Below, one piece after another: positions 46,335-61,814 of a stretch of 64,000 bases of DNA; the first letter of the stretch is position 1, and each line of letters begins with the position of its first letter. The stretch is from Methanomassiliicoccales archaeon (GTDB lineage: Archaea > Thermoplasmatota > Thermoplasmata > Methanomassiliicoccales > UBA472). A model generated the notes under the pieces. It saw only the letters and a program-made list of their open reading frames with translations, was not told the origin of the DNA and made no database searches. Both the position numbers and the translations under genes were made by a program. The stretch covers positions 17,748 to 81,747 of the forward strand of contig DATJOX010000057.1 in NCBI GenBank assembly GCA_035506675.1, in the 5' to 3' direction.

Positions 46335-47069
46335 TCAGGGCTCTCTCCACTTCATTCTGAACGAGACGAGCAGGAGAAGGAGCACGGACGCGATCGCGAG
46401 AACGATGAAAGAGTACGCAGGCTCGATCGAATACCCGAGCCCCATCGCACCCTGGAACATGGAGGACGCTTCGGTGGTCGGGATCACAGCCGCCACCGGA
46501 ACGAGGTACGAGGGCAGGAAGGACATCGGGTAATACACCGGCGGCAGCACCGAGAGGATCGTTGTGATGAACCCATTGATCACGAACGCGTTCTGCGTGT
46601 TCGGGGCGTACGCCGAGAAGAAGAACCCGATGGCCGTGGTCGCGACCCAAAGCAGGAGCATTACGCCGAACGCGAGCACGAGCGAGGCGGCGGACGCGCC
46701 GTTCGCACCCATCAGAGCGAACAGAATGAGGAGCGCCGGAGCGCCGAAGATCAGCTCGGAGATCGCGACCCCGAACATGTACGTCAGCGGGGAGATCGGT
46801 GAGGCGACCGCGATGTCCTGGAACTTGTTCTGCAACTTGTAGGTCGCGAGGTCCGTGCCCACAAATAGCCCGAGCTCGGTCGTCGTCATCGTGAGCGCGC
46901 CCGCGATACCGAAAGTCAGCGCCTGTCCATTGCTCACGACGAAGAGCACGAAGAGCAGCGTGAACGGGGAGGTGAACAGGAACACCATGAAGAGCGGGTT
47001 CCTGAGCATCGGGATGAAGCCCAGGTAGTAGGCGATCGCCCAGAGCTTTCGCATCCTAAGGTTCGCCAT
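46335..47069 (-). CDS. ABC-2-type permease
   Basis: Six TM segments, LPPVYYP, IPTT. Confidence 0.88.
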   Translation of the reverse strand: MANLRMRKLWAIAYYLGFIPMLRNPLFMVFLFTSPFTLLFVLFVVSNGQALTFGIAGALTMTTTELGLFVGTDLATYKLQNKFQDIAVASPISPLTYMFGVAISELIFGAPALLILFALMGANGASAASLVLAFGVMLLLWVATTAIGFFFSAYAPNTQNAFVINGFITTILSVLPPVYYPMSFLPSYLVPVAAVIPTTEASSMFQGAMGLGYSIEPAYSFIVLAIASVLLLLLVSFRMKWREP

Positions 47070-47988
47070 TCACTTCCTCCTCCCCCTTCTCCGCCTCGCC
47101 GACGATGTCAACGAAAACGTCGTCCAGGGTCACCGGCCCGACGGAAAACGATGCCCCTCGCGCGACCGCGTCGTCACCGAGCCTCTTCGCTCCATCAGTT
47201 GAAGTGAGCACGCGGAAGTGGCTGGCGATGCGAATGGCATGCCCGTACTTCTGAAGCTCGTCCTCTTCGAACTTGTCGAAGACGTCCACCCTCGAGGTCT
47301 CGGAAGCGATGGACTCGCGGATGCTCTTGGGCGTTCCTCTGGCGACTATCTTACCCTTGTTGATTATCGCCAGATCGTCGGACAAAGCCTCCGCTTCGTC
47401 CATGTAGTGAGTGGTGAGAACGATGGTACGGCCTTCCTTCTTGAGGCGCGTGAGCTGTTCCCAGACGTGCCGTCGGCTCACCGGGTCCAGCCCGATACTC
47501 GGCTCGTCCAGGAAGAGGAGTTCGGCGTCGGTCGCGATCGTCATTGCCACTATGACTCGCTGCTTGAATCCCCCAGACAGCCACATTGAGTTCTGATCGG
47601 CGACCTCCGTGAGCTCGAGTGCCTCCATCGTGTCGTTCGTGCGCTTCGTGGCGTCGGCCTTACTCATGCCTCTCATGCGCAGCGAGAGCATGATGTGGTC
47701 CCGGGGGGTGAGCGGAAAGATCGTCTCCGCCTCCTGGGGGGTGAACGCGATGCGCTCTCGCACCTCCTTGGCCTGCTTCACGACGTCGAGACCGAGCACT
47801 TCGACGCTTCCAGATGTTGGAAGGAGCTGGGTGCCAGCGATGCGCAGGAACGTCGTCTTGCCGGCACCGTTGCGGCCGAGGAGCGTGAAGATCTGCCCCC
47901 GCTCGATCGTCAGGTCGAGATTGTCGACCGCGAGCTTGTCGGACCCCTTGTAGCGCTTCGTCAGCGCGGAGGCTTTGAGGACGTACAT
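47056..47988 (-). CDS. ABC-2-type ATP-binding subunit
   Basis: GRNGAGKTT, LSGG, FLDEPSIGLD, TTHY. Confidence 0.94.
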   Translation of the reverse strand: MYVLKASALTKRYKGSDKLAVDNLDLTIERGQIFTLLGRNGAGKTTFLRIAGTQLLPTSGSVEVLGLDVVKQAKEVRERIAFTPQEAETIFPLTPRDHIMLSLRMRGMSKADATKRTNDTMEALELTEVADQNSMWLSGGFKQRVIVAMTIATDAELLFLDEPSIGLDPVSRRHVWEQLTRLKKEGRTIVLTTHYMDEAEALSDDLAIINKGKIVARGTPKSIRESIASETSRVDVFDKFEEDELQKYGHAIRIASHFRVLTSTDGAKRLGDDAVARGASFSVGPVTLDDVFVDIVGEAEKGEEEVNGEP

Positions 47989-48222
47989 GCGCGAGAGAGG
48001 CTAGCCGTCCAGCATGGTAATAATGATTGCGAGCCTCCGTCATTGTCAGGAAAAGGGTTTTCGAACCTGCGGGTTCGGCGCAAAAGCATCCGAGATGCAG
48101 ACCGACGCGACAGCGCCTTTTTCGCCCAATCGCAGCAAATCGCACGACCAACGTCTATCATTTCGTCGCTGGGAACGGCGGAACAGCACGAATTGGTGCT
48201 TGAAGAGTCAGAAGGAAACAAA

Positions 48223-48834
48223 ATGAGGAAGGGACCCTCAGTCAGAGCCCTGGCCGCATCGATGCTGCTCACGTTCATACTGATCGCATCGATGATGGCT
48301 CTCGCAGCCCCCGCTGCCGCCGCGGCCATCAGCAAGCCGGGATTCAACCTCCCGGGAAACGTACTGGTCACCGACCAGTTCAACAACCGAGTGATCGAGA
48401 TCAACCACGCGGGCAGGATCGCCTGGCAGTACAGCGCCGGCATCAACCTCGCGGCCTTCGCGAGCCGGCTGCCTAACGGCAACACCCTGATCACGGATTC
48501 CGGTAACGCCAGGATATTCGAGGTGACCCCGCAGAGGAACGTCGCGTTCACGTACTTCACGAACACCAGCGAGAACAGCAACCCGAACCCGTTGCCGACC
48601 AACGCGGTGAGGCTTAGGGACGGCGGCACGATGATCGCCGACCAGTTCAATCACCGCGTGTTCAAGATCGACGCGAACAAGGACATCGTCTGGCAGTATG
48701 GCATGACGAACGTCGTCGGGAACACGCCTGGCCTGCTGAATGCGCCCTACACCGCGTTCGTGATCGGCGACTACACCGGACAGACCGTTCCGCCGGGCAC
48801 GGTGTTCGGAGTGCAGATGATACCTGCCGATTGA
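48223..48834 (+). CDS. Secreted short beta-propeller-repeat protein
   Basis: Signal peptide from ATG 48223; three G..L(V/I)(T/A)D..N.R(V/I).E(I/V)......W.Y blades. Confidence 0.8.
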   Translation: MRKGPSVRALAASMLLTFILIASMMALAAPAAAAAISKPGFNLPGNVLVTDQFNNRVIEINHAGRIAWQYSAGINLAAFASRLPNGNTLITDSGNARIFEVTPQRNVAFTYFTNTSENSNPNPLPTNAVRLRDGGTMIADQFNHRVFKIDANKDIVWQYGMTNVVGNTPGLLNAPYTAFVIGDYTGQTVPPGTVFGVQMIPAD

Positions 48835-49164
48835 AATTCTTTGAACGGAGCCGCGCGGAGATCAGCGCCGCGGCTCTCATTTCGTCTAATCCAGCCTTCT
48901 CTCCAACAGCAGAATGCTATCACCGCGACGACCGCGACCGAACGAACCTGTGCCAGCGCCACGTCGGTGGCCTCCACTTCACGTTCTCCAGCTCGACACG
49001 AATCGAAAAGAGACTGGCCTGCGTCTCTTCATTGGACCTCGTGACAATCATTAACAGCTTCGATGCGCATCACGGCCTGAACGTTCCCGCCTTGGCAATC
49101 AGAAGACGTCGTCATGGGGCGAGACGTGAGCTTGCGCAGTTCCATCATAGAAGGGGGAAGTCAT

Positions 49165-51921
49165 TTGACGTCGGCTTCATCATCGGGACCTTCGGTCGCC
49201 AAGCGATTCGCAATACTCTCGATCACGCTCCTTTTGTTCAGCTCGACAATCCTGGTTGCCGCGGTCGCAGGGAGTGCGGACGGATCGCCAATCGAAGGAC
49301 AGGTTTTCGGAGCGGCAATCAGCGCACCCCAGCCTGTTGGGGCAGCCAAGTCGATATTCTGGACTCAAATGGCCCCCGCCTTCATGGAGGACGCGATCAA
49401 TCAGGGATCGATTTACGGAGCAGTCGGCTGGGAACCGTTCTGCTCGCATGCGTCGATCGACGGCGCCGCCAAGGTCCTCGCAGAGTCGGGTGATGTCTGG
49501 CAGCACAGCCCTGGAGCGGTGATGGCCATGTCCATTTCATTTCCTTCTGTTCCGGGAAATCAGGAGCTCGCGGCCAGAGCCGTCAGGGCGACCATGGACG
49601 CAACGAAATGGATCGAGGATTCCATCGCGCAAGCATCGACGAATCATTCCAGCCTATTGACCATGGGAGCTCAGCTCACGAGCTTCAACACGACCGTAAT
49701 GGGCGCCGCCCTGCAGACCATGCAGTTCGAATACGGCATCGATGCCGGAATGATTGACGGCCTTCAGAACCTCACCGAAGGATTCCTAAACTTGGGCCAG
49801 ATCGCCGGGTATGGTGGGTACCCTGATGCGATGACCTTCGCTCAAGTGATCTCTAACACTTCTCTTCTTCAAATGGCCACGACCATGTCCTATAGTGACT
49901 CGATACTCGGAGTGGTGAGATTGGGTCATGTCAACGGCGACCTGCGTCAGCTTGCTTACACCGTGGCGATGAACACCTCACTCTGGGGAGGAAAGACGCT
50001 GTTTGAGGACTACGGCGTCCAAGTCGTAGGCCCCGCCCCATTCGCTAACAGTGGTGCCGTCCTCGACGCAGTTGCCGCAGGGAACATAGACATGGGATAC
50101 GTGACGAGCGGAACGGTGATCCTCAAGCGGATCAACTCCAACGCTCAGGTGGATGTCGTCTCGAACCTCGAAAGTGAGGGGTCCGCGATCCTTGTGAACC
50201 CATCCTATCAGTCTCCCATCGACCTGAACCTGAGGGTTTTCGCGACGCCTGGTCCGTCCACTATCGAACATCAATTGTTTCTGCGTTGGGCAACTGCCAA
50301 CGGCTTCGCCGTTTATTTGAGGGGGACGGTTTCCACCCCATCCGCACCGCAGACGCTGCAAGCGATTCCTGAAGTGGGCCAAATAGACTTAAAATGGACC
50401 CAACCGGCCTCGGATGGTGGGAGGGCGATTAGCAACTACACAGTATATCGTGGCACTGCTCCAAGCGTTCAGACTGTTCTAGCGTTGACCGGAACGGCAA
50501 CGTCCTATTCGGATGCTAGAGTGATTCCTGGTCAGAAGTACTACTACTCCGTCAGCGCCAACAACTCAATCGGCGAGGGTCCTATGTCGGACGAGGTCAG
50601 CGCGTGTTCGATTGTGGTGCCCTCAGCGCCGCTCGGACTCGTCGCCCACGCAGGAAACGGATCGTGTGCTCTCAACTGGAGCTCGCCGGTGATCACTGGA
50701 AGCGAAACGCTCACCTATCACGTGTTCAGGGACGACGGACCCATCTGGAACGGAACGGAGACATCTTGCATTGACATCGGACTGACGAACGGTGTCTTGT
50801 ACGAGTACAAAGTGTCCGCGAACAACTCGAACGGCTGGGGTCCGAACAGCACTGCGGTCACCGCCATGCCCCTCCTGCCAAGCGCGCCGAGCGTGCCCTT
50901 GCACCTTGCGGCAACGCCTGGCGTCGAGAACGTGACTCTTCACTGGGACGCGCCCACGTTCAGCAATGGCTCTGCGGTCTCGGGGTACCGGGTCCTATTC
51001 GGGACGTCGCCCACAACCATGACGGACCAGGTGCTTTCATCTCAGCGCGACCTTGTCCTCGAGGGACTAACGGGAAGATCTACGTATTACATCGTCGTCG
51101 CGGCACGCAACGATGCGGGTTGGGGCGCGAACACGAGCATCGTGACAGCGACACCGCTGATCCCTCCTCCCCCGAGCGTCTCGTTCGTCGTTACCAGACT
51201 CGGCTCTCTAATCCCCATCATCACCGCCAAGGAGAACCAGACCCTCGTGTTCAACGCGAACGCGACCTACTCGCAGTTCGAAGCATTTGACACGCTCAAC
51301 TTCACCTGGAACATGGGAAATGGGATCACGAGATACGGAAGTTACTTCAACGACTTCGCGTACACGGGCATCCGGACCTACACGATCAAGCTGACCGTGA
51401 AGGGCCCCGAGAGCAACGCAGCGAACAAAACCACATCGTTCGTCGTCACTTCTGAACCGAGGCCGGACCTGCGCATCCTCTCGATGACAGTATCGCCGTC
51501 GAACCTGAGCAAAGGGGAGCAGGGCACGTTCACGGTGACGCTTAGGAACGTCGGTGACGACATCGCTACATCACCTGCGGTCGAGTTCTACCGGCTCATG
51601 TCGGACGGCGCGAAAGTGAGATTGGGCAACTCCAGCAACCTGGTTATAGCGGGCGCTCAGGCAACGTCACTTGAGCCGGGGCAAGAGGGCACGATCACGT
51701 TCAACTGGGCTCCACAGACGATAGCGAACATGACGGTCACTGCCTACGCTCACGCTCCCCGAGAGATCAACACCGCCGACAACACGGACTCGATCGGCTT
51801 CGTGGTGGTTCAGATCCCGGCCCCGGCTTCCGACGGGACTCTTGTCACCATCGCTGCCGTCGCCGCTATTGCGGGCGTGCTCATAGCGGCATTCATGCTC
51901 TACGTGGCTCGGAAGCGATGA
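49165..51921 (+). CDS. Surface protein: permuted NMT1/SsuA-like binding domain, 3x FN3, PKD-like, CARDB-like, C-terminal TM anchor
   Basis: TTG 49165 after GAAGGGGG; signal peptide; WEPF and RLGH..DL.QL motifs; PSAP..L.W..P FN3 repeats; PDLRI..MTVSP; terminal TM followed by RKR. Confidence 0.85.
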   Translation: MTSASSSGPSVAKRFAILSITLLLFSSTILVAAVAGSADGSPIEGQVFGAAISAPQPVGAAKSIFWTQMAPAFMEDAINQGSIYGAVGWEPFCSHASIDGAAKVLAESGDVWQHSPGAVMAMSISFPSVPGNQELAARAVRATMDATKWIEDSIAQASTNHSSLLTMGAQLTSFNTTVMGAALQTMQFEYGIDAGMIDGLQNLTEGFLNLGQIAGYGGYPDAMTFAQVISNTSLLQMATTMSYSDSILGVVRLGHVNGDLRQLAYTVAMNTSLWGGKTLFEDYGVQVVGPAPFANSGAVLDAVAAGNIDMGYVTSGTVILKRINSNAQVDVVSNLESEGSAILVNPSYQSPIDLNLRVFATPGPSTIEHQLFLRWATANGFAVYLRGTVSTPSAPQTLQAIPEVGQIDLKWTQPASDGGRAISNYTVYRGTAPSVQTVLALTGTATSYSDARVIPGQKYYYSVSANNSIGEGPMSDEVSACSIVVPSAPLGLVAHAGNGSCALNWSSPVITGSETLTYHVFRDDGPIWNGTETSCIDIGLTNGVLYEYKVSANNSNGWGPNSTAVTAMPLLPSAPSVPLHLAATPGVENVTLHWDAPTFSNGSAVSGYRVLFGTSPTTMTDQVLSSQRDLVLEGLTGRSTYYIVVAARNDAGWGANTSIVTATPLIPPPPSVSFVVTRLGSLIPIITAKENQTLVFNANATYSQFEAFDTLNFTWNMGNGITRYGSYFNDFAYTGIRTYTIKLTVKGPESNAANKTTSFVVTSEPRPDLRILSMTVSPSNLSKGEQGTFTVTLRNVGDDIATSPAVEFYRLMSDGAKVRLGNSSNLVIAGAQATSLEPGQEGTITFNWAPQTIANMTVTAYAHAPREINTADNTDSIGFVVVQIPAPASDGTLVTIAAVAAIAGVLIAAFMLYVARKR

Positions 51922-52007: not shown

Positions 52008-53141
52008 GTGGCGAAGAATCCTGGTACTGCTATCGCAATCGTAGCAATCGCTTGCCTCTTGCTGATCGGCAGCGTCAACCTGATGCAGCTCGTGAGCGCG
52101 GATGACGTGCCTGCGGGGAAAGCGCCCGCGCCCTCAGTCTCCGAGCAGCACGTGCACAATCAGGCGGAAACGTATGAAGGCCAAGCTCAAGGCAACTTCG
52201 ACAACGAGGCTTGGTGGATCACCATTTCCCAAGGCGACCTCAAGACGCTCATCACCGCCAGGAACTACTCCAACGGCAACCAGGTCACCGTCGACTACGG
52301 CATGAACTTCAACTTCCATCTCGGTGGCAAGTTCTACATCGCGATGTTCACCATCGACCAAGTGCTGATCAAGATCGGGGACGATTCGCTGCTCGTTCCG
52401 CTGAAGAACTGCGCTGGGTTCCAACTGAGCTACACGAGCGTCTCGTACGACGGCAACACACCCACGATCGATTGCAGCGTGGCGTTCAAGGACGTCCGAG
52501 TGCACCCTGAGTCCGCATCCTCGGCATTCGATCTGACTCTCTTCAACCACTACCGCGGCGATTGGAACAGCACGAGCATCAAGGTCGAAGCGTTGCTGGA
52601 CTTCACCGGCACGAACCTCGGTCCGTATCCTGCTGGCACACCGTTCACCGTCGAGATCCATTACATCATGCAGCTGACCGACCCGAAGCTCCAGCTCGGA
52701 CCGCCGGACTTCAACACCCTCCGGCCCTCGCGCTACACAAACGACACGATGGAGTACAACCTCACGGGCAATGACGGATCGCCGTACACGCTCTCCAAGC
52801 TTGACATGAACGACGCCTTCACGATCAACAACGAGACAGGGGCGTACGCCGCGACGGGATACTCGCGCATCGACTCCCCCAACTCGACGAACGGCATGCA
52901 ATACAACCACAATGCGCGCGTGGTAACTCACGGCTTCCCAGGACTCGTCTACGGGTCCACAACGCTTGTGAGGAGCGACCCGCAGATCGTCGTGTACCAC
53001 GACCTCGCTAGTGACGATGGATTCTTGACAATCCTCGTTGCGATAGCTGGTGTAGCCGCGGCAGGATGCCTAGGTGCGTTTGTGTTGGTGAGAAGAAAGA
53101 GAAGGACTGAGAGGGGCAACAAGGAGAAAGGCGCCAAGTGA
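52008..53141 (+). CDS. Exported beta-rich protein with C-terminal membrane anchor
   Basis: N-terminal signal peptide, C-terminal TM followed by RRKRR; TAAATA box 27 nt upstream. Confidence 0.78.
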   Translation: MAKNPGTAIAIVAIACLLLIGSVNLMQLVSADDVPAGKAPAPSVSEQHVHNQAETYEGQAQGNFDNEAWWITISQGDLKTLITARNYSNGNQVTVDYGMNFNFHLGGKFYIAMFTIDQVLIKIGDDSLLVPLKNCAGFQLSYTSVSYDGNTPTIDCSVAFKDVRVHPESASSAFDLTLFNHYRGDWNSTSIKVEALLDFTGTNLGPYPAGTPFTVEIHYIMQLTDPKLQLGPPDFNTLRPSRYTNDTMEYNLTGNDGSPYTLSKLDMNDAFTINNETGAYAATGYSRIDSPNSTNGMQYNHNARVVTHGFPGLVYGSTTLVRSDPQIVVYHDLASDDGFLTILVAIAGVAAAGCLGAFVLVRRKRRTERGNKEKGAK

Positions 53142-57345: not shown

Positions 57346-57621
57346 TCAGCCGCCCGCCATCGGTGGGAATAGAATGATGTCATCGCCTTCTTTGACTCTC
57401 GTCGCCAGGCCACCGGTCTCTTTCACGCTCTTTCCGTTCACCATCATGCTCACATATGGACGAAGGTCGCCCTCGCTCATCGCCGCTCTCCCGAGCTCTG
57501 GATGCGCCTGCGCAAGCGCGGCGAGAACGTCCCCCGCGGTATCGCCCTTCGCCTCGATCTCCAGCACTTTCTCGCCAGCGATGTAGCGGAATTGACCGAA
57601 CAGCTTCACACTGACCTTCGT
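57346..57621 (-). CDS. MoaD/ThiS/SAMP ubiquitin-like sulfur carrier
   Basis: KVSVKLFGQFR..VNG..FPPMAGG* with C-terminal di-Gly; start either ACG 57621 or GTG 57609. Confidence 0.92.
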   Translation of the reverse strand, partial: TKVSVKLFGQFRYIAGEKVLEIEAKGDTAGDVLAALAQAHPELGRAAMSEGDLRPYVSMMVNGKSVKETGGLATRVKEGDDIILFPPMAGG

Positions 57622-58412
57622 AGGGATCCCCCCTCGCCATGCGGTTCGAGAGAACAGCAGGCACTGCAGCGCGAATCGCGCCTGATCTCCAGCTCGTGGA
57701 ACTCCATGTATTCGCCATCGTATACCAGGAGTCGGTTCTCGAGCGTCCTCCCCACACCCGTGACGACCTTCACCGCCTCCGTGACTTGTAGGGCGCCGAG
57801 AACGCCGGCAGTTGCCCCCAGGATCGGGAAGACCTCCTTCGGCGGGACGTGTGGGAACACGCACTCCAGGCATGGAGTCCTCCCTGGAACGAAAGTTGAC
57901 ATGCGCCCCTCCATACCCCAGACCGAGGCATGGATGAAGGGGATGCGGTGTTTCAATGACGCACGGTTCAGCAGAAACCTCGTGGGGAAGTTGTCCACCG
58001 CGTCGACGATCAGGTCGTGCCCCGCGGTCAGATCTAGAACGTTGCCTTCATCGATCGTGCCCTTGAAAACGTTCACCTCGATGTGCTCGTTGATCTTCAT
58101 CAACTTGTCCCGCCCGCTCTCGACCTTCGGCCTGCCCACATCCTTGTCCCAGTGAAGGATTTGCCTGTTCAGGTTGCTGAGATCCACGACGTCCAGATCC
58201 GCGAGCGTTATGTGCCCGAAACCTGCGACCGCGAGGTAGATCGCGACTGGGCTTCCCAGTCCTCCGGCGCCGGCGACGAAGATCCTCGCGTTCTTGAGCT
58301 TCCGCTGCCCCTCCTCGCCGATGCCCTTGATCAAGATCTGGCGAGCGTATCGCTTGCGGTCGTACTCGTCCAAATCCGCGGTGATGGGTCGACTAGGCGA
58401 TGCCGTCGTCAT
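57606..58412 (-). CDS. ThiF/MoeB E1-like adenylyltransferase (copy 2)
   Basis: RYARQI, GAGGLG, SNLNRQ, DAVDN, CLEC, CSAC; overlaps both neighbours. Confidence 0.93.
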   Translation of the reverse strand: MTTASPSRPITADLDEYDRKRYARQILIKGIGEEGQRKLKNARIFVAGAGGLGSPVAIYLAVAGFGHITLADLDVVDLSNLNRQILHWDKDVGRPKVESGRDKLMKINEHIEVNVFKGTIDEGNVLDLTAGHDLIVDAVDNFPTRFLLNRASLKHRIPFIHASVWGMEGRMSTFVPGRTPCLECVFPHVPPKEVFPILGATAGVLGALQVTEAVKVVTGVGRTLENRLLVYDGEYMEFHELEIRRDSRCSACCSLEPHGEGGSLRRSV

Positions 58413-59340
58413 AGTGAGGCCTCCCAGGATGTGCCTTCCGGATGAACCGGTGCTCGAATATCTCTTTCTCTGGCAGAAGGCGCGAGATATAGCTCATGTC
58501 CTTGAGCACCTTCACGAACACCATGGTCGACTGGACGTACTGGGACGGCAGCGCCGCGCAGTACTTCGGCGACACCTTGTATGTCTCGAGCACGTACTCC
58601 GGATCGACGGTCTGCACGAGGCGGGAAACGATCCTAGCCGCCGCATGTGGGTCCTCCCGAACGAAGGCGCAGGCGCGCTCGTGCTGTTGAAGGAACTTGA
58701 TGACGGTATCATCGTCCCGCATCAGCGACGCGCTCACCAGAATCCCGTAGCTCGGGTTGTATGGCCACAGCTTGCTCGGAGGCACGACGATCTTGGTGTT
58801 CGCAAACCTTCTCGAAGCGACTGCCAGAGGAGGTGTGCCAATGGCCGCCGGAAGCTCTCGGTCGGTGATCGCCTCGAGCACGAAATCCGCCCACTGGTAG
58901 TTCTTGACCTCGATGTCATAGCCAGATTCTCGCACTATGTCCCGCGCGATCACATCGTGGATCGAACCCTTTGGGGGGGTGCCGATTGCCTTTCCGTCGA
59001 ATTGCTTTAGCACCTCGTCGATGCTCCCTAGCTCCTCAAGCCCGAGATATTCGGCCTGCGCGATCATCACCGTGCCTTCGACATGCCCTCCTGCCACGCA
59101 CTTGATCGGCACTCCGCGGGCGATGCCGACCACGGCCGGCGGCAAGCCGAGGTATCCCAGATCAATCATGCCGCCCTCGAATGCTTTGACAATGTCGGGG
59201 CCTGAGGCGAACAGCCTCCATTGGACGTCGAGGCCTTCCTTCTGCAGCCAGTCGACACCCTCCAGGATGAAAGAGGTATGGTAGAAGGTCGAGAGATGGC
59301 CGATGCGTAGGGGCGCGTCGCGCATGCTGATTGGAGGCAC
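58393..59340 (-). CDS. NMT1/THI5/SsuA-fold binding protein lacking a signal peptide
   Basis: LRIGHLSTFYH, FASGPDIVKAF..G.IDLGYLGLPP, TPPKGSIHD, WPYNP; in-frame TGA immediately upstream of the GTG. Confidence 0.85.
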   Translation of the reverse strand: MPPISMRDAPLRIGHLSTFYHTSFILEGVDWLQKEGLDVQWRLFASGPDIVKAFEGGMIDLGYLGLPPAVVGIARGVPIKCVAGGHVEGTVMIAQAEYLGLEELGSIDEVLKQFDGKAIGTPPKGSIHDVIARDIVRESGYDIEVKNYQWADFVLEAITDRELPAAIGTPPLAVASRRFANTKIVVPPSKLWPYNPSYGILVSASLMRDDDTVIKFLQQHERACAFVREDPHAAARIVSRLVQTVDPEYVLETYKVSPKYCAALPSQYVQSTMVFVKVLKDMSYISRLLPEKEIFEHRFIRKAHPGRPHYDDGIA

Positions 59341-59367
59341 TCAGGACGTTCTTCATTGTTTTGTTGC

Positions 59368-59429
59368 GTGGCCCGGAACCCTACATTGATATCTCCGCAT
59401 CTCGCCGAAACTAGGTGGCCCAACCCTAC
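59368..59429. repeat. Direct repeat GTGGCCC(GG)AACCCTAC x2
   Basis: Copies at 59368-59384 and 59415-59429 in the comE intergenic gap. Confidence 0.6.
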
Positions 59430-59477
59430 TGCGCTCGTTGCCGTGGATTTGGTGGGAACCAGCCTTGGGCCATGAAT

Positions 59478-60020
59478 CTAGATCGCTTTTGCGAACCTGC
59501 TGATGATATCCCTCGGCCCCATGGGCACCAGCGGAACATCCGCGTTGCCCGCCTCGACCTCTGCAACGATTGCGCCGGAAGGCATTTCCTTGACAAGCTT
59601 GTGAAGATGAGAGACGGAGGAAGTCCTTCGCACCGGCGCTATACCGGCAGCCTTCGCGAGCTCGCTCAACTTGATCCCGCATGACGATGCGCTCGGCTGG
59701 CAACCCGTCGAGCCATAGACCCCGTTGTCCATGATAACCAGAAGATAGTTGCCCCGGGCCTTGGCGGAGATCGTCGTCAGGCTGCCTAGGTTCATCAGAA
59801 TCGACCCGTCGCCGTCGATCGCTATCACCCTTCTGTCCTCGCGCGCGATCGCCAGGCCAAGACCGATTGAAGATGCCAAGCCCATCGATCCGAGCATATA
59901 GAAATTACGATCGCGATCGGCAACGCGGAACAGCTCCCTCGACGGAAACCCAAGGTTGCACACGATGAGTCCATCACCAGCCGCTTCGGCCACCGCTCGG
60001 ATCGCATCGATGCGTCTCAT
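59478..60020 (-). CDS. comE: Sulfopyruvate decarboxylase beta subunit
   Basis: NFYMLGSMG, DGDGSILMNLG (TPP motif), DNGVYGSTG; ATG 60020 overlaps the comD TGA. Confidence 0.9.
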   Translation of the reverse strand: MRRIDAIRAVAEAAGDGLIVCNLGFPSRELFRVADRDRNFYMLGSMGLASSIGLGLAIAREDRRVIAIDGDGSILMNLGSLTTISAKARGNYLLVIMDNGVYGSTGCQPSASSCGIKLSELAKAAGIAPVRRTSSVSHLHKLVKEMPSGAIVAEVEAGNADVPLVPMGPRDIISRFAKAI

Positions 60021-60517
60021 TGCGACCTCCAGAAGGCATTGTCCAGGAGTATCGCGACCGGCTTCCTCTCCCCTATTGATCGGCTCCAGCCTCCGACGAT
60101 CGCCTGTTCCGCTTCGCCCGGCCCCGGCTTGATCGCCGGAATCCCCATCGATCTCAGCAGCGGCTCCGTCAGCAGGCCCATCGGCACCTGGGCTGAGACC
60201 TCTTCGCCCTCGACCCCCCTGTGACTGACGATTATCAACAACGGGATTCCATAGAGCAGATCGAGCGAGGCGAGGGCGTTGATCGAATTGCCTAGGCCGG
60301 AGTTCTGCATGAGCAGTGCTGGCTTCATCCCGCCCAGGTACGCGCCGGCGCATATCCCGACACCCTCCTCTTCCCTCGAGACCGCGAGATGCCGGATCGA
60401 CGTGTCGGCCTCGATGAGAGCTATCAGATCAGTCAGGTTGACGCAGGGCACGCTGGTGACTATGCCTATGCCGATCTTCTTCATCCCGGAGAAGACCTCG
60501 TTCGCTTGAGCATTCAC
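60017..60517 (-). CDS. comD: Sulfopyruvate decarboxylase alpha subunit
   Basis: VPC, REEEGVGICAGAYLGG, LMQNSGLGN, HRG. Confidence 0.9.
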   Translation of the reverse strand: MNAQANEVFSGMKKIGIGIVTSVPCVNLTDLIALIEADTSIRHLAVSREEEGVGICAGAYLGGMKPALLMQNSGLGNSINALASLDLLYGIPLLIIVSHRGVEGEEVSAQVPMGLLTEPLLRSMGIPAIKPGPGEAEQAIVGGWSRSIGERKPVAILLDNAFWRSQ

Positions 60518-60557
60518 TTGCAGTCACCCGAGCCATGGAGTATCATGCTCTCATGCC

Positions 60558-61814
60558 TCAAGCGGCACACCTCCTCAACTCCCTTTGCACATCGGAGGCG
60601 AGCGCCTTGACATCTGCTCCTGCTTTCTTAACCTTGAGATCGAAATGCAGTTGCGTCACACCTCGCTCCGCCCTGAGCAACCTCTCTCCCCCACCAGTAA
60701 TGTTCAGCAGCACGACGTCTTCCGGGCCGACGCTTCCAGATTCGGCCGACTTCACCAAAGCGGCGACCGCGATCGCCGCCGCCGGCATAACGTCTACGCC
60801 CTCCGCTCTCTCGAAGAGCCTACGAGCGCGTTCTGCCTCGTCATTCGTGATTCCCTGGACAGACCCATGAGTGGATTTGAGGGCATCAATCACCCCTCCC
60901 TTCTGCGTGATCGGCGGCCTGCGGTTGAACAGCACCTCATCGTACATCCCCTTCGGGCATGCGGGATCGATCACGGCGTCCTTCAGAGCGGCGAGTATCG
61001 GCGCACAAGGCAGGTTCTGCGCAAGGTCCAGTACCGGCATCGCGCTCCCGAACCGCCCGTCCCGAATCAACCTCATCGACGCCTCCCAAGCGGCGATCGC
61101 TCCGGTCGCGCTCCCCACCGCCTGAACGTAGCGGTCCGGGATCCGGCCGATGGTGAGCGCTGCCTCCAGCATCACCGTCCCCATCCCGTCCCTTCGCGCG
61201 ATGTTCCTTGCCCCTCCCTCCGGGACGAAACCCTCTAGGCATGCGAGCTGTTCAGCGAGGACGATCGCGTCCGTGTAGTCGCCATCGACCGCAATCGTGC
61301 AAATTGTCTCGTGTCGTGATCCTTCGCCAGGCAACCATATCTTGTTCATCGCTGTAGCCGGCACCACCAGCGCCAGAGGTCGTCGGGTGACTGAGCAGGC
61401 GTGCGCGAATGCTCGACCGGTGTTCCCGGCGGAGGCGACGACGAGGATGTCCTCTTTCCCTTTTTCGATGAGACGCTCGACCGTCGGCGCCGCCTCCAGC
61501 TCTTTGAAGCTGCAGGTATGGAAAAGGGCGTTCTTGTCAGGCCAATAGCCATTGAACGATACGAACAGGTGCTTGATGCCGACCTCGGAGGCGAAGCCCT
61601 CGCTACGATAGGTCACGCTTCTTCCGTTCAACGCGGGAATGATGTCATTGGTCGGCAACCAGTCGAGGAACTTCCACATGCCAGGAAGATCCCTCGGAGT
61701 CAATCGGATCGCCGAATACTCGGCCCTGAGGAAGTGTGGATCGCTCGGACATGTGATCGCATGCTGGTCGCATTCGGAGCTGCAGCCCAGACAGCGCACG
61801 ACGTACTTCTTCAT
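60558..61814 (-). CDS. Cysteate synthase (threonine synthase-like, PLP)
   Basis: NGYWP, TCSFKELEA (PLP Lys), ASAGNTGRAFA, EGGARN, VLLNITGGG; adjacent to comDE. Confidence 0.9.
   Translation of the reverse strand: MKKYVVRCLGCSSECDQHAITCPSDPHFLRAEYSAIRLTPRDLPGMWKFLDWLPTNDIIPALNGRSVTYRSEGFASEVGIKHLFVSFNGYWPDKNALFHTCSFKELEAAPTVERLIEKGKEDILVVASAGNTGRAFAHACSVTRRPLALVVPATAMNKIWLPGEGSRHETICTIAVDGDYTDAIVLAEQLACLEGFVPEGGARNIARRDGMGTVMLEAALTIGRIPDRYVQAVGSATGAIAAWEASMRLIRDGRFGSAMPVLDLAQNLPCAPILAALKDAVIDPACPKGMYDEVLFNRRPPITQKGGVIDALKSTHGSVQGITNDEAERARRLFERAEGVDVMPAAAIAVAALVKSAESGSVGPEDVVLLNITGGGERLLRAERGVTQLHFDLKVKKAGADVKALASDVQRELRRCAA

Follow-up and report, generated by a model that had tools for sequence, protein, structure and literature searches.

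Solute-binding proteins of the NitT/TauT type, which include TauA (6SSY), SsuA (2X26), NrtA/CmpA and the C-terminal domain of NrtC, have a two-lobed type II architecture and follow an operon logic of binding protein, permease and ATPase. Here we describe a member of the same sequence family, predicted to have the same two-lobed architecture, that is encoded by a single open reading frame (ORF) at 49114–51921 (+) of a 64,000-nucleotide stretch of DNA from a Methanomassiliicoccales archaeon (GenBank assembly GCA_035506675.1, contig DATJOX010000057.1, positions 17,748 to 81,747 of the forward strand; hereafter the window). The product of 935 amino acids (aa), followed by a stop codon, comprises a signal or anchor helix, an NMT1_2 solute-binding head, three FN3 domains, a PKD-like domain, a CARDB domain and a C-terminal transmembrane segment, in that order. 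While its standalone relatives share the operon logic of the NitT/TauT proteins, the protein itself differs from them in having the halves of the binding domain swapped, no adjacent transporter, a 500-aa stalk and a C-terminal transmembrane segment.

Among type II binding proteins, a precedent for natural circular permutation exists in the glycine-betaine-binding proteins OpuAC of B. subtilis (2B4L) and ProX from Escherichia coli (1R9L) and A. fulgidus (1SW1), which are permuted among themselves and with respect to ModA/CysB (Lo and Lyu, 2008; CPSARST, PMC2395249) and indicate that this fold tolerates permutation with the pocket kept. Those proteins belong to another Pfam family, however (the protein described here has no OpuAC match), and their permutation is a relation between distant proteins of less than 24% identity (PMC2395249), whereas in the present family, proteins of canonical, permuted and tandem form are 40–50% identical per matching half and occupy the same syntenic operon, with two different breakpoints and repeated switching of the order. 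Our literature search found no report of circular permutation in NrtA, SsuA, TauA, NMT1 or archaeal binding proteins, no mention of this kind of binding protein in the CIRPIN paper and no published syntenic permutation series with tandem intermediates, although such absence is not proof.

The remainder of the protein resembles the adhesin-like surface proteins of methanogens, with which it shares a signal segment, tandem immunoglobulin (Ig)-like domains, numerous N-glycosylation sequons and a C-terminal transmembrane segment followed by a basic tail; it differs from them in that its head is a solute-binding domain rather than the usual β-helix, propeller or leucine-rich-repeat type of domain. 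Importer domains that are tethered or fused are also known, including the Sulfolobus binding proteins with a C-terminal transmembrane segment and the GlnPQ and OpuA domains fused to the permease. Common to these systems and our protein is the covalent membrane tether, and their tandem domains of differing specificity resemble a tandem protein described below, but their tethers are short or flexible and their domains are encoded alongside a permease or joined to it, as opposed to five folded domains and no adjacent permease. We found no published description of an archaeal surface protein that has a solute-binding domain for its head; here, too, absence is not proof.

Circularly permuted order of the binding head

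When the whole protein was compared with Pfam, NMT1_2 matched with 58.4 bits (cut-off 24.7) in two stretches. Scanned alone, the 'late' half (residues 58–260) matched profile positions 154–242 with 36.4 bits (residues 81–171 aligned) and the 'early' half (residues 261–412) matched positions 27–101 with 30.1 bits (residues 294–366 aligned), so that each half exceeded the gathering cut-off on its own and the two came in swapped order, with no single collinear match. By comparison, the canonical relative P0161 produced one collinear NMT1_2 match (positions 28–244). The swap was also seen with NCBIfam models, SsuA_fam (TIGR01728) aligning residues 84–172 with its positions 135–221 and SaoX aligning residues 296–396 with its positions 26–122. 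The SsuA_fam score (48.6 bits) was far under the cut-off of 163.5, and the NCBIfam scan gave no match to the taurine-binding model TIGR01729. The protein qualifies by hidden Markov model (HMM) as a member of the NMT1_2 superfamily; because it falls below both curated cut-offs, naming it SsuA or TauA would be unwarranted.

The junction was placed by phmmer with P0161 as the query. Head residues 19–198 matched canonical residues 180–363 (93 bits) and head residues 205–348 matched canonical residues 34–179 (99 bits); together the two pieces cover canonical residues 34–363 once, without gap or overlap, and are separated by six residues. In full-length numbering, the late part comprises residues 76–255 (window 49339–49878), the early part residues 262–405 (49897–50328), both as delimited by phmmer, NMT1_2 and secondary structure, and the junction, which links the ancestral C-terminus to the ancestral N-terminus, is TTMSYS (residues 256–261, 49879–49896; from the phmmer gap and the alignment). 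These limits are essentially the same as those given for the two halves in an earlier note on this DNA (49345–49911 and 49912–50328), which had proposed the permutation, and the motifs quoted there are present in the sequence.

The canonical order is that of the solved TauA, SsuA and NrtA-type proteins. On our secondary-structure assignment, the late part of the head contains the last β-α-β unit of lobe 2 with the WEP motif, then the crossover strand, whose HPCC motif is degenerate, and finally the helical region of the canonical C-terminus. The early part begins with β1 (VRLGH) and contains the N-terminal part of lobe 1, the first crossover and most of lobe 2, ending in the strand FAVYLRG. 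Comparison of the secondary structure of the model with the canonical sequence places the cut in a loop of a lobe 2 hairpin, which in P0161 lies between ...FNVTMSG and TVYWTT....

An AlphaFold2 model of the head, built on a 12-sequence alignment, is a single compact fold with a mean predicted local distance difference test (pLDDT) of 87.3 and a predicted template modelling score (pTM) of 0.85, and its strands and helices follow the order of a type II binding protein, rotated. In this model the halves are not separate incomplete domains. AlphaFold2 prediction of the canonical P0161, on a shallow alignment, reached a pLDDT of only 50.7. In a Foldseek search of the PDB, all matches of the head model were binding proteins or ligand domains of glutamate receptors; they were weak, the best being OpuAC of Bacillus subtilis (E-value 4e-4, template modelling score 0.35–0.46), and were obtained with an aligner that depends on chain order. 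The matches of the head in a phmmer search of PDB sequences were marginal (E-value about 0.5) and again in swapped order. The head appears to be a complete type II NitT/TauT (NMT1_2) solute-binding domain; its order is circularly permuted.

The comparison from which the permutation was proposed had been made with an NMT1-like protein encoded in the same window (58393–59340) and taken for a paralogue. The swapped order is indeed visible in that comparison, but the protein is only a distant relative, with BLASTP E-values of 0.05 and 0.42. Since these are not significant, it was rejected as a comparator for the head; the close paralogue is encoded elsewhere in the genome, on contig C49.

Canonical, permuted and tandem forms in the family

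An exhaustive HMMER search of 1.84 billion cluster representatives with the head retrieved 181 relatives, and we classified the 150 that were listed. Of these, 44 align with the entire head in its own segment order, and most of this group are 340–380 aa long and have a hydrophobic segment near the N-terminus; another 65 align as two pieces in exchanged order, which corresponds to the canonical order or, sometimes, to a third order; and the remainder are fragments. The named members with the permuted order belong to Methanomassiliicoccales, Methanonatronarchaeum, Archaeoglobi (Ca. Mnemosynella) and one Thermoleophilia bacterium, and their annotation is plain ABC or NitT/TauT substrate-binding protein. 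At least 28 of 41 related genomes also contain one collinear match to residues ∼70–410. The permutation is thus general in this lineage, a point that the earlier note had singled out for checking, and these standalone permuted proteins rule out that it is unique to the stalked protein.

The closest relative in the same genome, encoded on contig C49, is a permuted protein of 365 aa (44% identity, E-value 3e-84) whose gene lies directly upstream of those for an ABC permease and an ATPase; the same order of binding protein, permease and ATPase is found at the loci of P0156 and P0161. This paralogue and its Methanomassiliicoccales orthologues have the permuted order, the breakpoint and the N-terminal hydrophobic segment in common with the stalked protein but, unlike it, keep the HPCC motif and the conserved His, Asn and Gln residues (see below), have a permease and an ATPase behind them and lack the stalk and C-terminal transmembrane segment.

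The third order results from a second breakpoint, with canonical residues 114–365 followed by residues 34–116, and is represented by P0030, P0039, P0051, P0057, P0060 (from a Methanomassiliicoccaceae metagenome-assembled genome, MAG), P0079, P0083 and P0117, all of about 380–400 aa. A protein of 757 aa from a Thermoplasmata MAG (P0122) is a tandem form of this order. In another protein of this subfamily, P0092 (688 aa), an ABC ATPase is joined through an Ala-rich, hydrophobic linker to a binding domain in canonical order, with HACC replacing HPCC and the Cys-Cys pair kept.

The block around the paralogue (L003, 5172–12538) encodes an ELP3-like radical S-adenosylmethionine protein, a helix-turn-helix regulator, the binding protein, the permease, the ATPase, a 173-aa protein, thioredoxin reductase and thioredoxin. 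The same type of block with a permuted binding protein was found at five loci of Methanomassiliicoccales MAGs (L004–L007 and L010), where the neighbouring genes are 50–83% identical, and, partly rearranged and again with a permuted binding protein, in a Thermoplasmata MAG (L009). On a metagenome contig (L014) this block holds a canonical binding protein, to which the halves of the C49 paralogue match in reversed order. In a further genome (G022, contig C13; L028, 4011–6143, − strand), a binding protein of 710 aa with the order late-early-late-early is encoded between the permease and ELP3 genes, the flanking genes including at least thioredoxin reductase, permease and ELP3. It consists of two permuted units with a canonical unit embedded mid-protein; its two copies are 52% identical to each other, the first lacking the Cys-Cys pair, the His and the Gln and the second keeping all of them. 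This tandem protein is likely a living intermediate of a duplication/deletion route.

We rearranged all sequences into one segment order and constructed a maximum-likelihood tree, on which the order label changes eight times, with at least four changes forced by well-supported branches for the permuted type. A tree constrained to place all 40 permuted sequences in one clade was rejected [log-likelihood difference 175, P = 5e-7 in the approximately unbiased (AU) test], and a single origin of the permuted order was discarded accordingly. The groups used in the AU test were defined from domain scans; a quick tree, which agrees with the maximum-likelihood tree, had been inspected before the test. 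The order has switched several times in this binding-protein family.

The simplest mechanism, and the likely one, is the textbook route in which a domain is duplicated in tandem and the outer half-domains are then lost. Trimming both outer half-domains of a tandem pair would convert either order into the other, and tandem intermediates were found for both permuted types (the 710-aa protein of G022 and the 757-aa P0122). As a natural series illustrating how duplication and deletion could permute a protein, the family is unusually clean, and it shows natural permissive cut sites in a scaffold that is widely used for biosensors. Order-dependent tools detect half a domain in these proteins, and the sole annotation that they carry is 'ABC transporter substrate-binding protein' or 'fibronectin type 3 domain-containing protein'.

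The importer block, whose binding protein carries the motifs HPCC, GDLHQ and SIQH, is near-universal across the sampled Methanomassiliicoccales genomes, and the adjacent Cys pair at a column of TauA ligand contact is unusual for an extracellular binding protein. At another locus, in Methanonatronarchaeum sp. AMET-Sl (L017; CP122958.1, 1001701–1014774), the permuted binding protein, permease and ATPase lie together amid genes for a URO-D family protein, a RACo-type corrinoid activase, nitrogenase-like proteins (Oxidored_nitro and Fer4_NifH) and a CbiA-type amidase, which may possibly be a hint to the ligand or a mere neighbourhood effect.

Origin and possible role of the stalked proteins

In the tree, the stalked protein forms one clade (100/98) with P0004 (886 aa) and P0005 (817 aa), and in each of the three a permuted head lies between a signal segment and FN3 repeats, with a transmembrane segment at the C-terminus. 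This clade is nested in a clade of nine permuted sequences (100/99) that includes the C49 paralogue. As the head sits inside a clade of standalone, N-terminally anchored permuted binding proteins, several of them encoded just ahead of an ABC permease and an ATPase, the permutation was inherited by the stalked protein rather than invented by it; what is peculiar to the protein is the graft onto a generic surface stalk and the replacement of residues that are conserved in the family. Stalked copies were found in only 2 of 40 relative genomes (G008 and G020), both belonging to another genus, and the contigs with stalked homologues, which are short, have no neighbouring genes in common with the window.

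The stalk itself is not specific to this protein. Its PKD-CARDB-transmembrane cassette is 44–54% identical to those of other large surface ORFs of the same genome, found at C41:76965–79973 (1003 aa) and C49:2–4312 (1437+ aa), whose N-terminal parts, judged by reading the sequences, look unrelated to the binding domain. Because this cassette recurs in other large surface ORFs of the genome, the protein is a chimera in which a generic surface-display stalk is attached to a transporter binding domain at the C-terminus newly generated by permutation. Contig C26, in addition, encodes FN3 repeats in a long array, 33–42% identical to those of the stalked protein.

To compare the heads, column conservation was calculated from 71 relatives of all three orders, and positions are given here in the numbering of the stalked protein. 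Residues C134, C135, H278, N353 and Q385 are each conserved at 0.90–0.93 in these relatives and are changed in all three stalked proteins, while H132, conserved at 0.97, is changed in two of the three. The replacements in our protein are C134G, C135A, H278R, N353E, Q385E and H132S, with the result that the HPCC motif, the His of GDLHQ, the Asn of N-x-EGS and the Gln of SIQH are not kept; the degenerate HPCC site, identified from column conservation, reads H-S-P-G-A where the family has x-H-P-C-C (residues 131–135, window 49504–49518).

Canonical members of the subfamily match TauA with an E-value of 4e-25 and SsuA with 3e-16, and the ligand contacts described for E. coli TauA, which include Trp176 and Asp205 to taurine and main-chain Gly to the sulfonate (PMC6906117), could be transferred through this alignment. 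Published TauA numbers correspond to the chain index plus 21, an offset that fits G61, G79, E106, T132, W176 and D205; N55, D84 and S109, named in the same paper (PMC6906117), do not fit it. In the family, the column of Trp176 is occupied by the Trp of the WEP motif, that of Asp205 by the second HPCC Cys, that of Glu106 by the Ser in EGS and that of Thr132 by the Ser/Thr that precedes IQH. The two Gly residues that contact the ligand through the main chain fall at columns where the family has Gly and the stalked protein has G313S and G331T. At the Asp205 column the other two stalked proteins, P0004 and P0005, carry Glu and Asp. Judging from this mapping and from the replaced columns, the conserved residues probably line the inter-lobe cleft, at least the HPCC position would be part of the ligand site, and the site of the stalked clade appears to be either re-tuned or degraded. 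As to the ligand, the earlier note suggested a candidate scavenger or adhesin for a sulfonate or an anion; TauA, the closest solved relative, supports only a class, small polar or anionic.

We are inclined, with moderate confidence, to read these proteins as a case in which a transporter binding domain has been co-opted as a binding head displayed on a surface stalk. In the ancestor of the three stalked proteins, the permuted domain would have been fused through its new C-terminus to an FN3/Ig-like stalk and a transmembrane anchor, and the family-conserved residues would have been replaced after the fusion. The N-terminal segment is probably cleaved, as must happen in other stalked surface proteins, which would leave a predicted secreted protein with a C-terminal membrane anchor. 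Five Ig-like domains connected by proline-rich linkers would hold the head about 15–20 nm from the membrane, an estimate that is based on the usual size of Ig-like domains and assumes a rigid stalk. The head would most likely serve as a lectin-like displayed module for a small polar or anionic group, either free or on a polymer, a partner or a neighbouring cell surface, and has probably given up the shuttle role of docking on a permease. A cytoplasmic part of just four residues would leave the protein unable to signal.

Several observations weigh against such a displayed head. The protein retains W106, S357 and T383, which are equivalent to ligand contacts of TauA, along with the hinge residues (the three other contact columns have A135, S313 and T331), and the head could for this reason be a working binding protein for a different ligand. 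Loss of the Cys-Cys pair is by itself no proof of a lost transport role, since P0010 also lacks it, as does the first copy of the G022 tandem, which sits inside a transporter operon. Archaeal binding proteins with a C-terminal transmembrane anchor after a linker are known, and thus the anchor alone does not exclude transport. Finally, the sequence was found in three wetland-metagenome DNA runs and in no RNA runs. The main rival is that the protein is a working 'orphan' second receptor, which takes a different ligand and feeds the C49 permease and ATPase, the stalk being an unusually long tether. The completeness and confident model of the head and the presence of a matching permease and ATPase in the genome speak for this possibility too, yet we consider it less likely than the displayed head: a five-domain stalk would have to bend back by about 180 degrees to reach a permease in the same membrane, the stalk cassette bears unrelated heads in the same genome, importer genes are absent beside both this gene and that of P0004, the form is sporadic among relatives, and the terminal branch of the protein is long (0.65, versus about 0.25 for the C49 paralogue).

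The same replacements might also mean that the head is ligand-dead, having decayed into a mere cap, spacer or antigenic surface within an adhesin-like protein. The changes affect five to six residues conserved in the family, and G313S and G331T fall at the columns of main-chain sulfonate contact in TauA; the three stalked heads, however, still show 44–45% identity across the entire domain, and both lobes, the WEP motif, the hinge residues and a shared Q385E are kept, which points to continued constraint on the fold and the cleft region and makes decay unlikely. That there is no true permutation at all, the ORF being either the remnants of two adjacent binding-protein genes or an assembly chimera, is an a priori possibility for any sequence from a MAG, but it is very hard to reconcile with the two pieces that cover the canonical domain without gap or overlap, the single confident compact model and the many standalone proteins with the same order. 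An assembly chimera, in particular, is excluded because the stalked architecture recurs in assemblies independent of this one (P0004, found on two ENA contigs, P0005, G008 and G020), and for practical purposes we regard an artefact as excluded.

Taken one step further, the displayed-head reading suggests a wider scenario that we put forward tentatively. The binding-protein family would have been permuted through duplication and deletion, leaving an operon that occurs with canonical, two kinds of permuted and tandem forms, and a C-terminus located in lobe 2 would have let the graft of a stalk create an undescribed class of archaeal surface receptors or adhesins with a re-tuned pocket. For methyl-reducing methanogens, the stalked derivative suggests that archaea can recruit solute-binding domains as surface recognition modules.

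Gene boundaries and genomic neighbourhood

The source genome comprises 1.97 Mb in 61 contigs, and its closest relatives are MAGs of the Methanomassiliicoccales. The public gene call for this ORF (P0003, 845 aa) begins at Met91 (MEDAIN...) and drops the signal segment and the first strand (window 49114–49383). Homologues align from residue ∼12 of the full-length protein and from head residue 3–4, i.e. before the start of P0003, and the true start is predicted to lie at or near 49114. A hydropathy scan detected only two hydrophobic segments, residues 31–55 (49204–49278), which are followed by AGS/ADG and may be a signal peptide or a signal anchor, and residues 906–934. The second includes the C-terminal transmembrane segment (about residues 906–931), which is followed by the basic tail ARKR and the stop codon (segment and tail, 51829–51918), with no cytoplasmic domain.

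Between the head and this segment, the stalk begins with three FN3 domains (approximately residues 406–506, 507–596 and 597–685; 50329–51168), which Pfam fn3 detects as three stretches with an E-value of 1.9e-23 and whose boundaries were read from the repeats. The next domain (residues 686–780, 51169–51453) is PKD-like, its Pfam match (residues 706–774, 18.5 bits) being under the cut-off of 23.5 and its assignment resting also on the cassette common to other surface ORFs. CARDB follows (residues 781–892, 51454–51789; Pfam E-value 7.8e-10 for residues 783–890). The FN3-PKD-CARDB stalk and C-terminal transmembrane segment of the earlier note are therefore all present, PKD with the reservation just given. 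N-glycosylation sequons (N-x-S/T) number 22 in the whole protein, and the stalk accounts for 17.

The same note reported no transporter genes nearby. Importer genes are indeed absent: no ABC importer genes lie beside the stalked gene in the window or beside that of P0004 in the two surroundings that were read. An ABC-2-type pair is nevertheless present at 46335–47988 and, from its sequence, looks like an exporter. As no importer permease and ATPase are encoded next to it, the protein should not be called an ABC transporter component.

The gene directly upstream (48199–48834, +) encodes a small protein with a signal segment that appears, on reading its sequence, to be β-propeller-like, and the downstream gene (52008–53141, +) a protein of 377 aa with a signal segment and a C-terminal transmembrane segment followed by a basic tail. 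Farther downstream, genes on the opposite strand (57346–61814, −) encode cysteate synthase, ComD and ComE, then the distantly related NMT1-like protein mentioned above, an E1-like protein of the ThiF/MoeB kind and a protein that resembles ThiS/MoaD and ends in GG. These names come from reading the sequences, the NMT1-like protein alone having been scanned with Pfam; it is cytoplasmic and has its halves in the canonical order.

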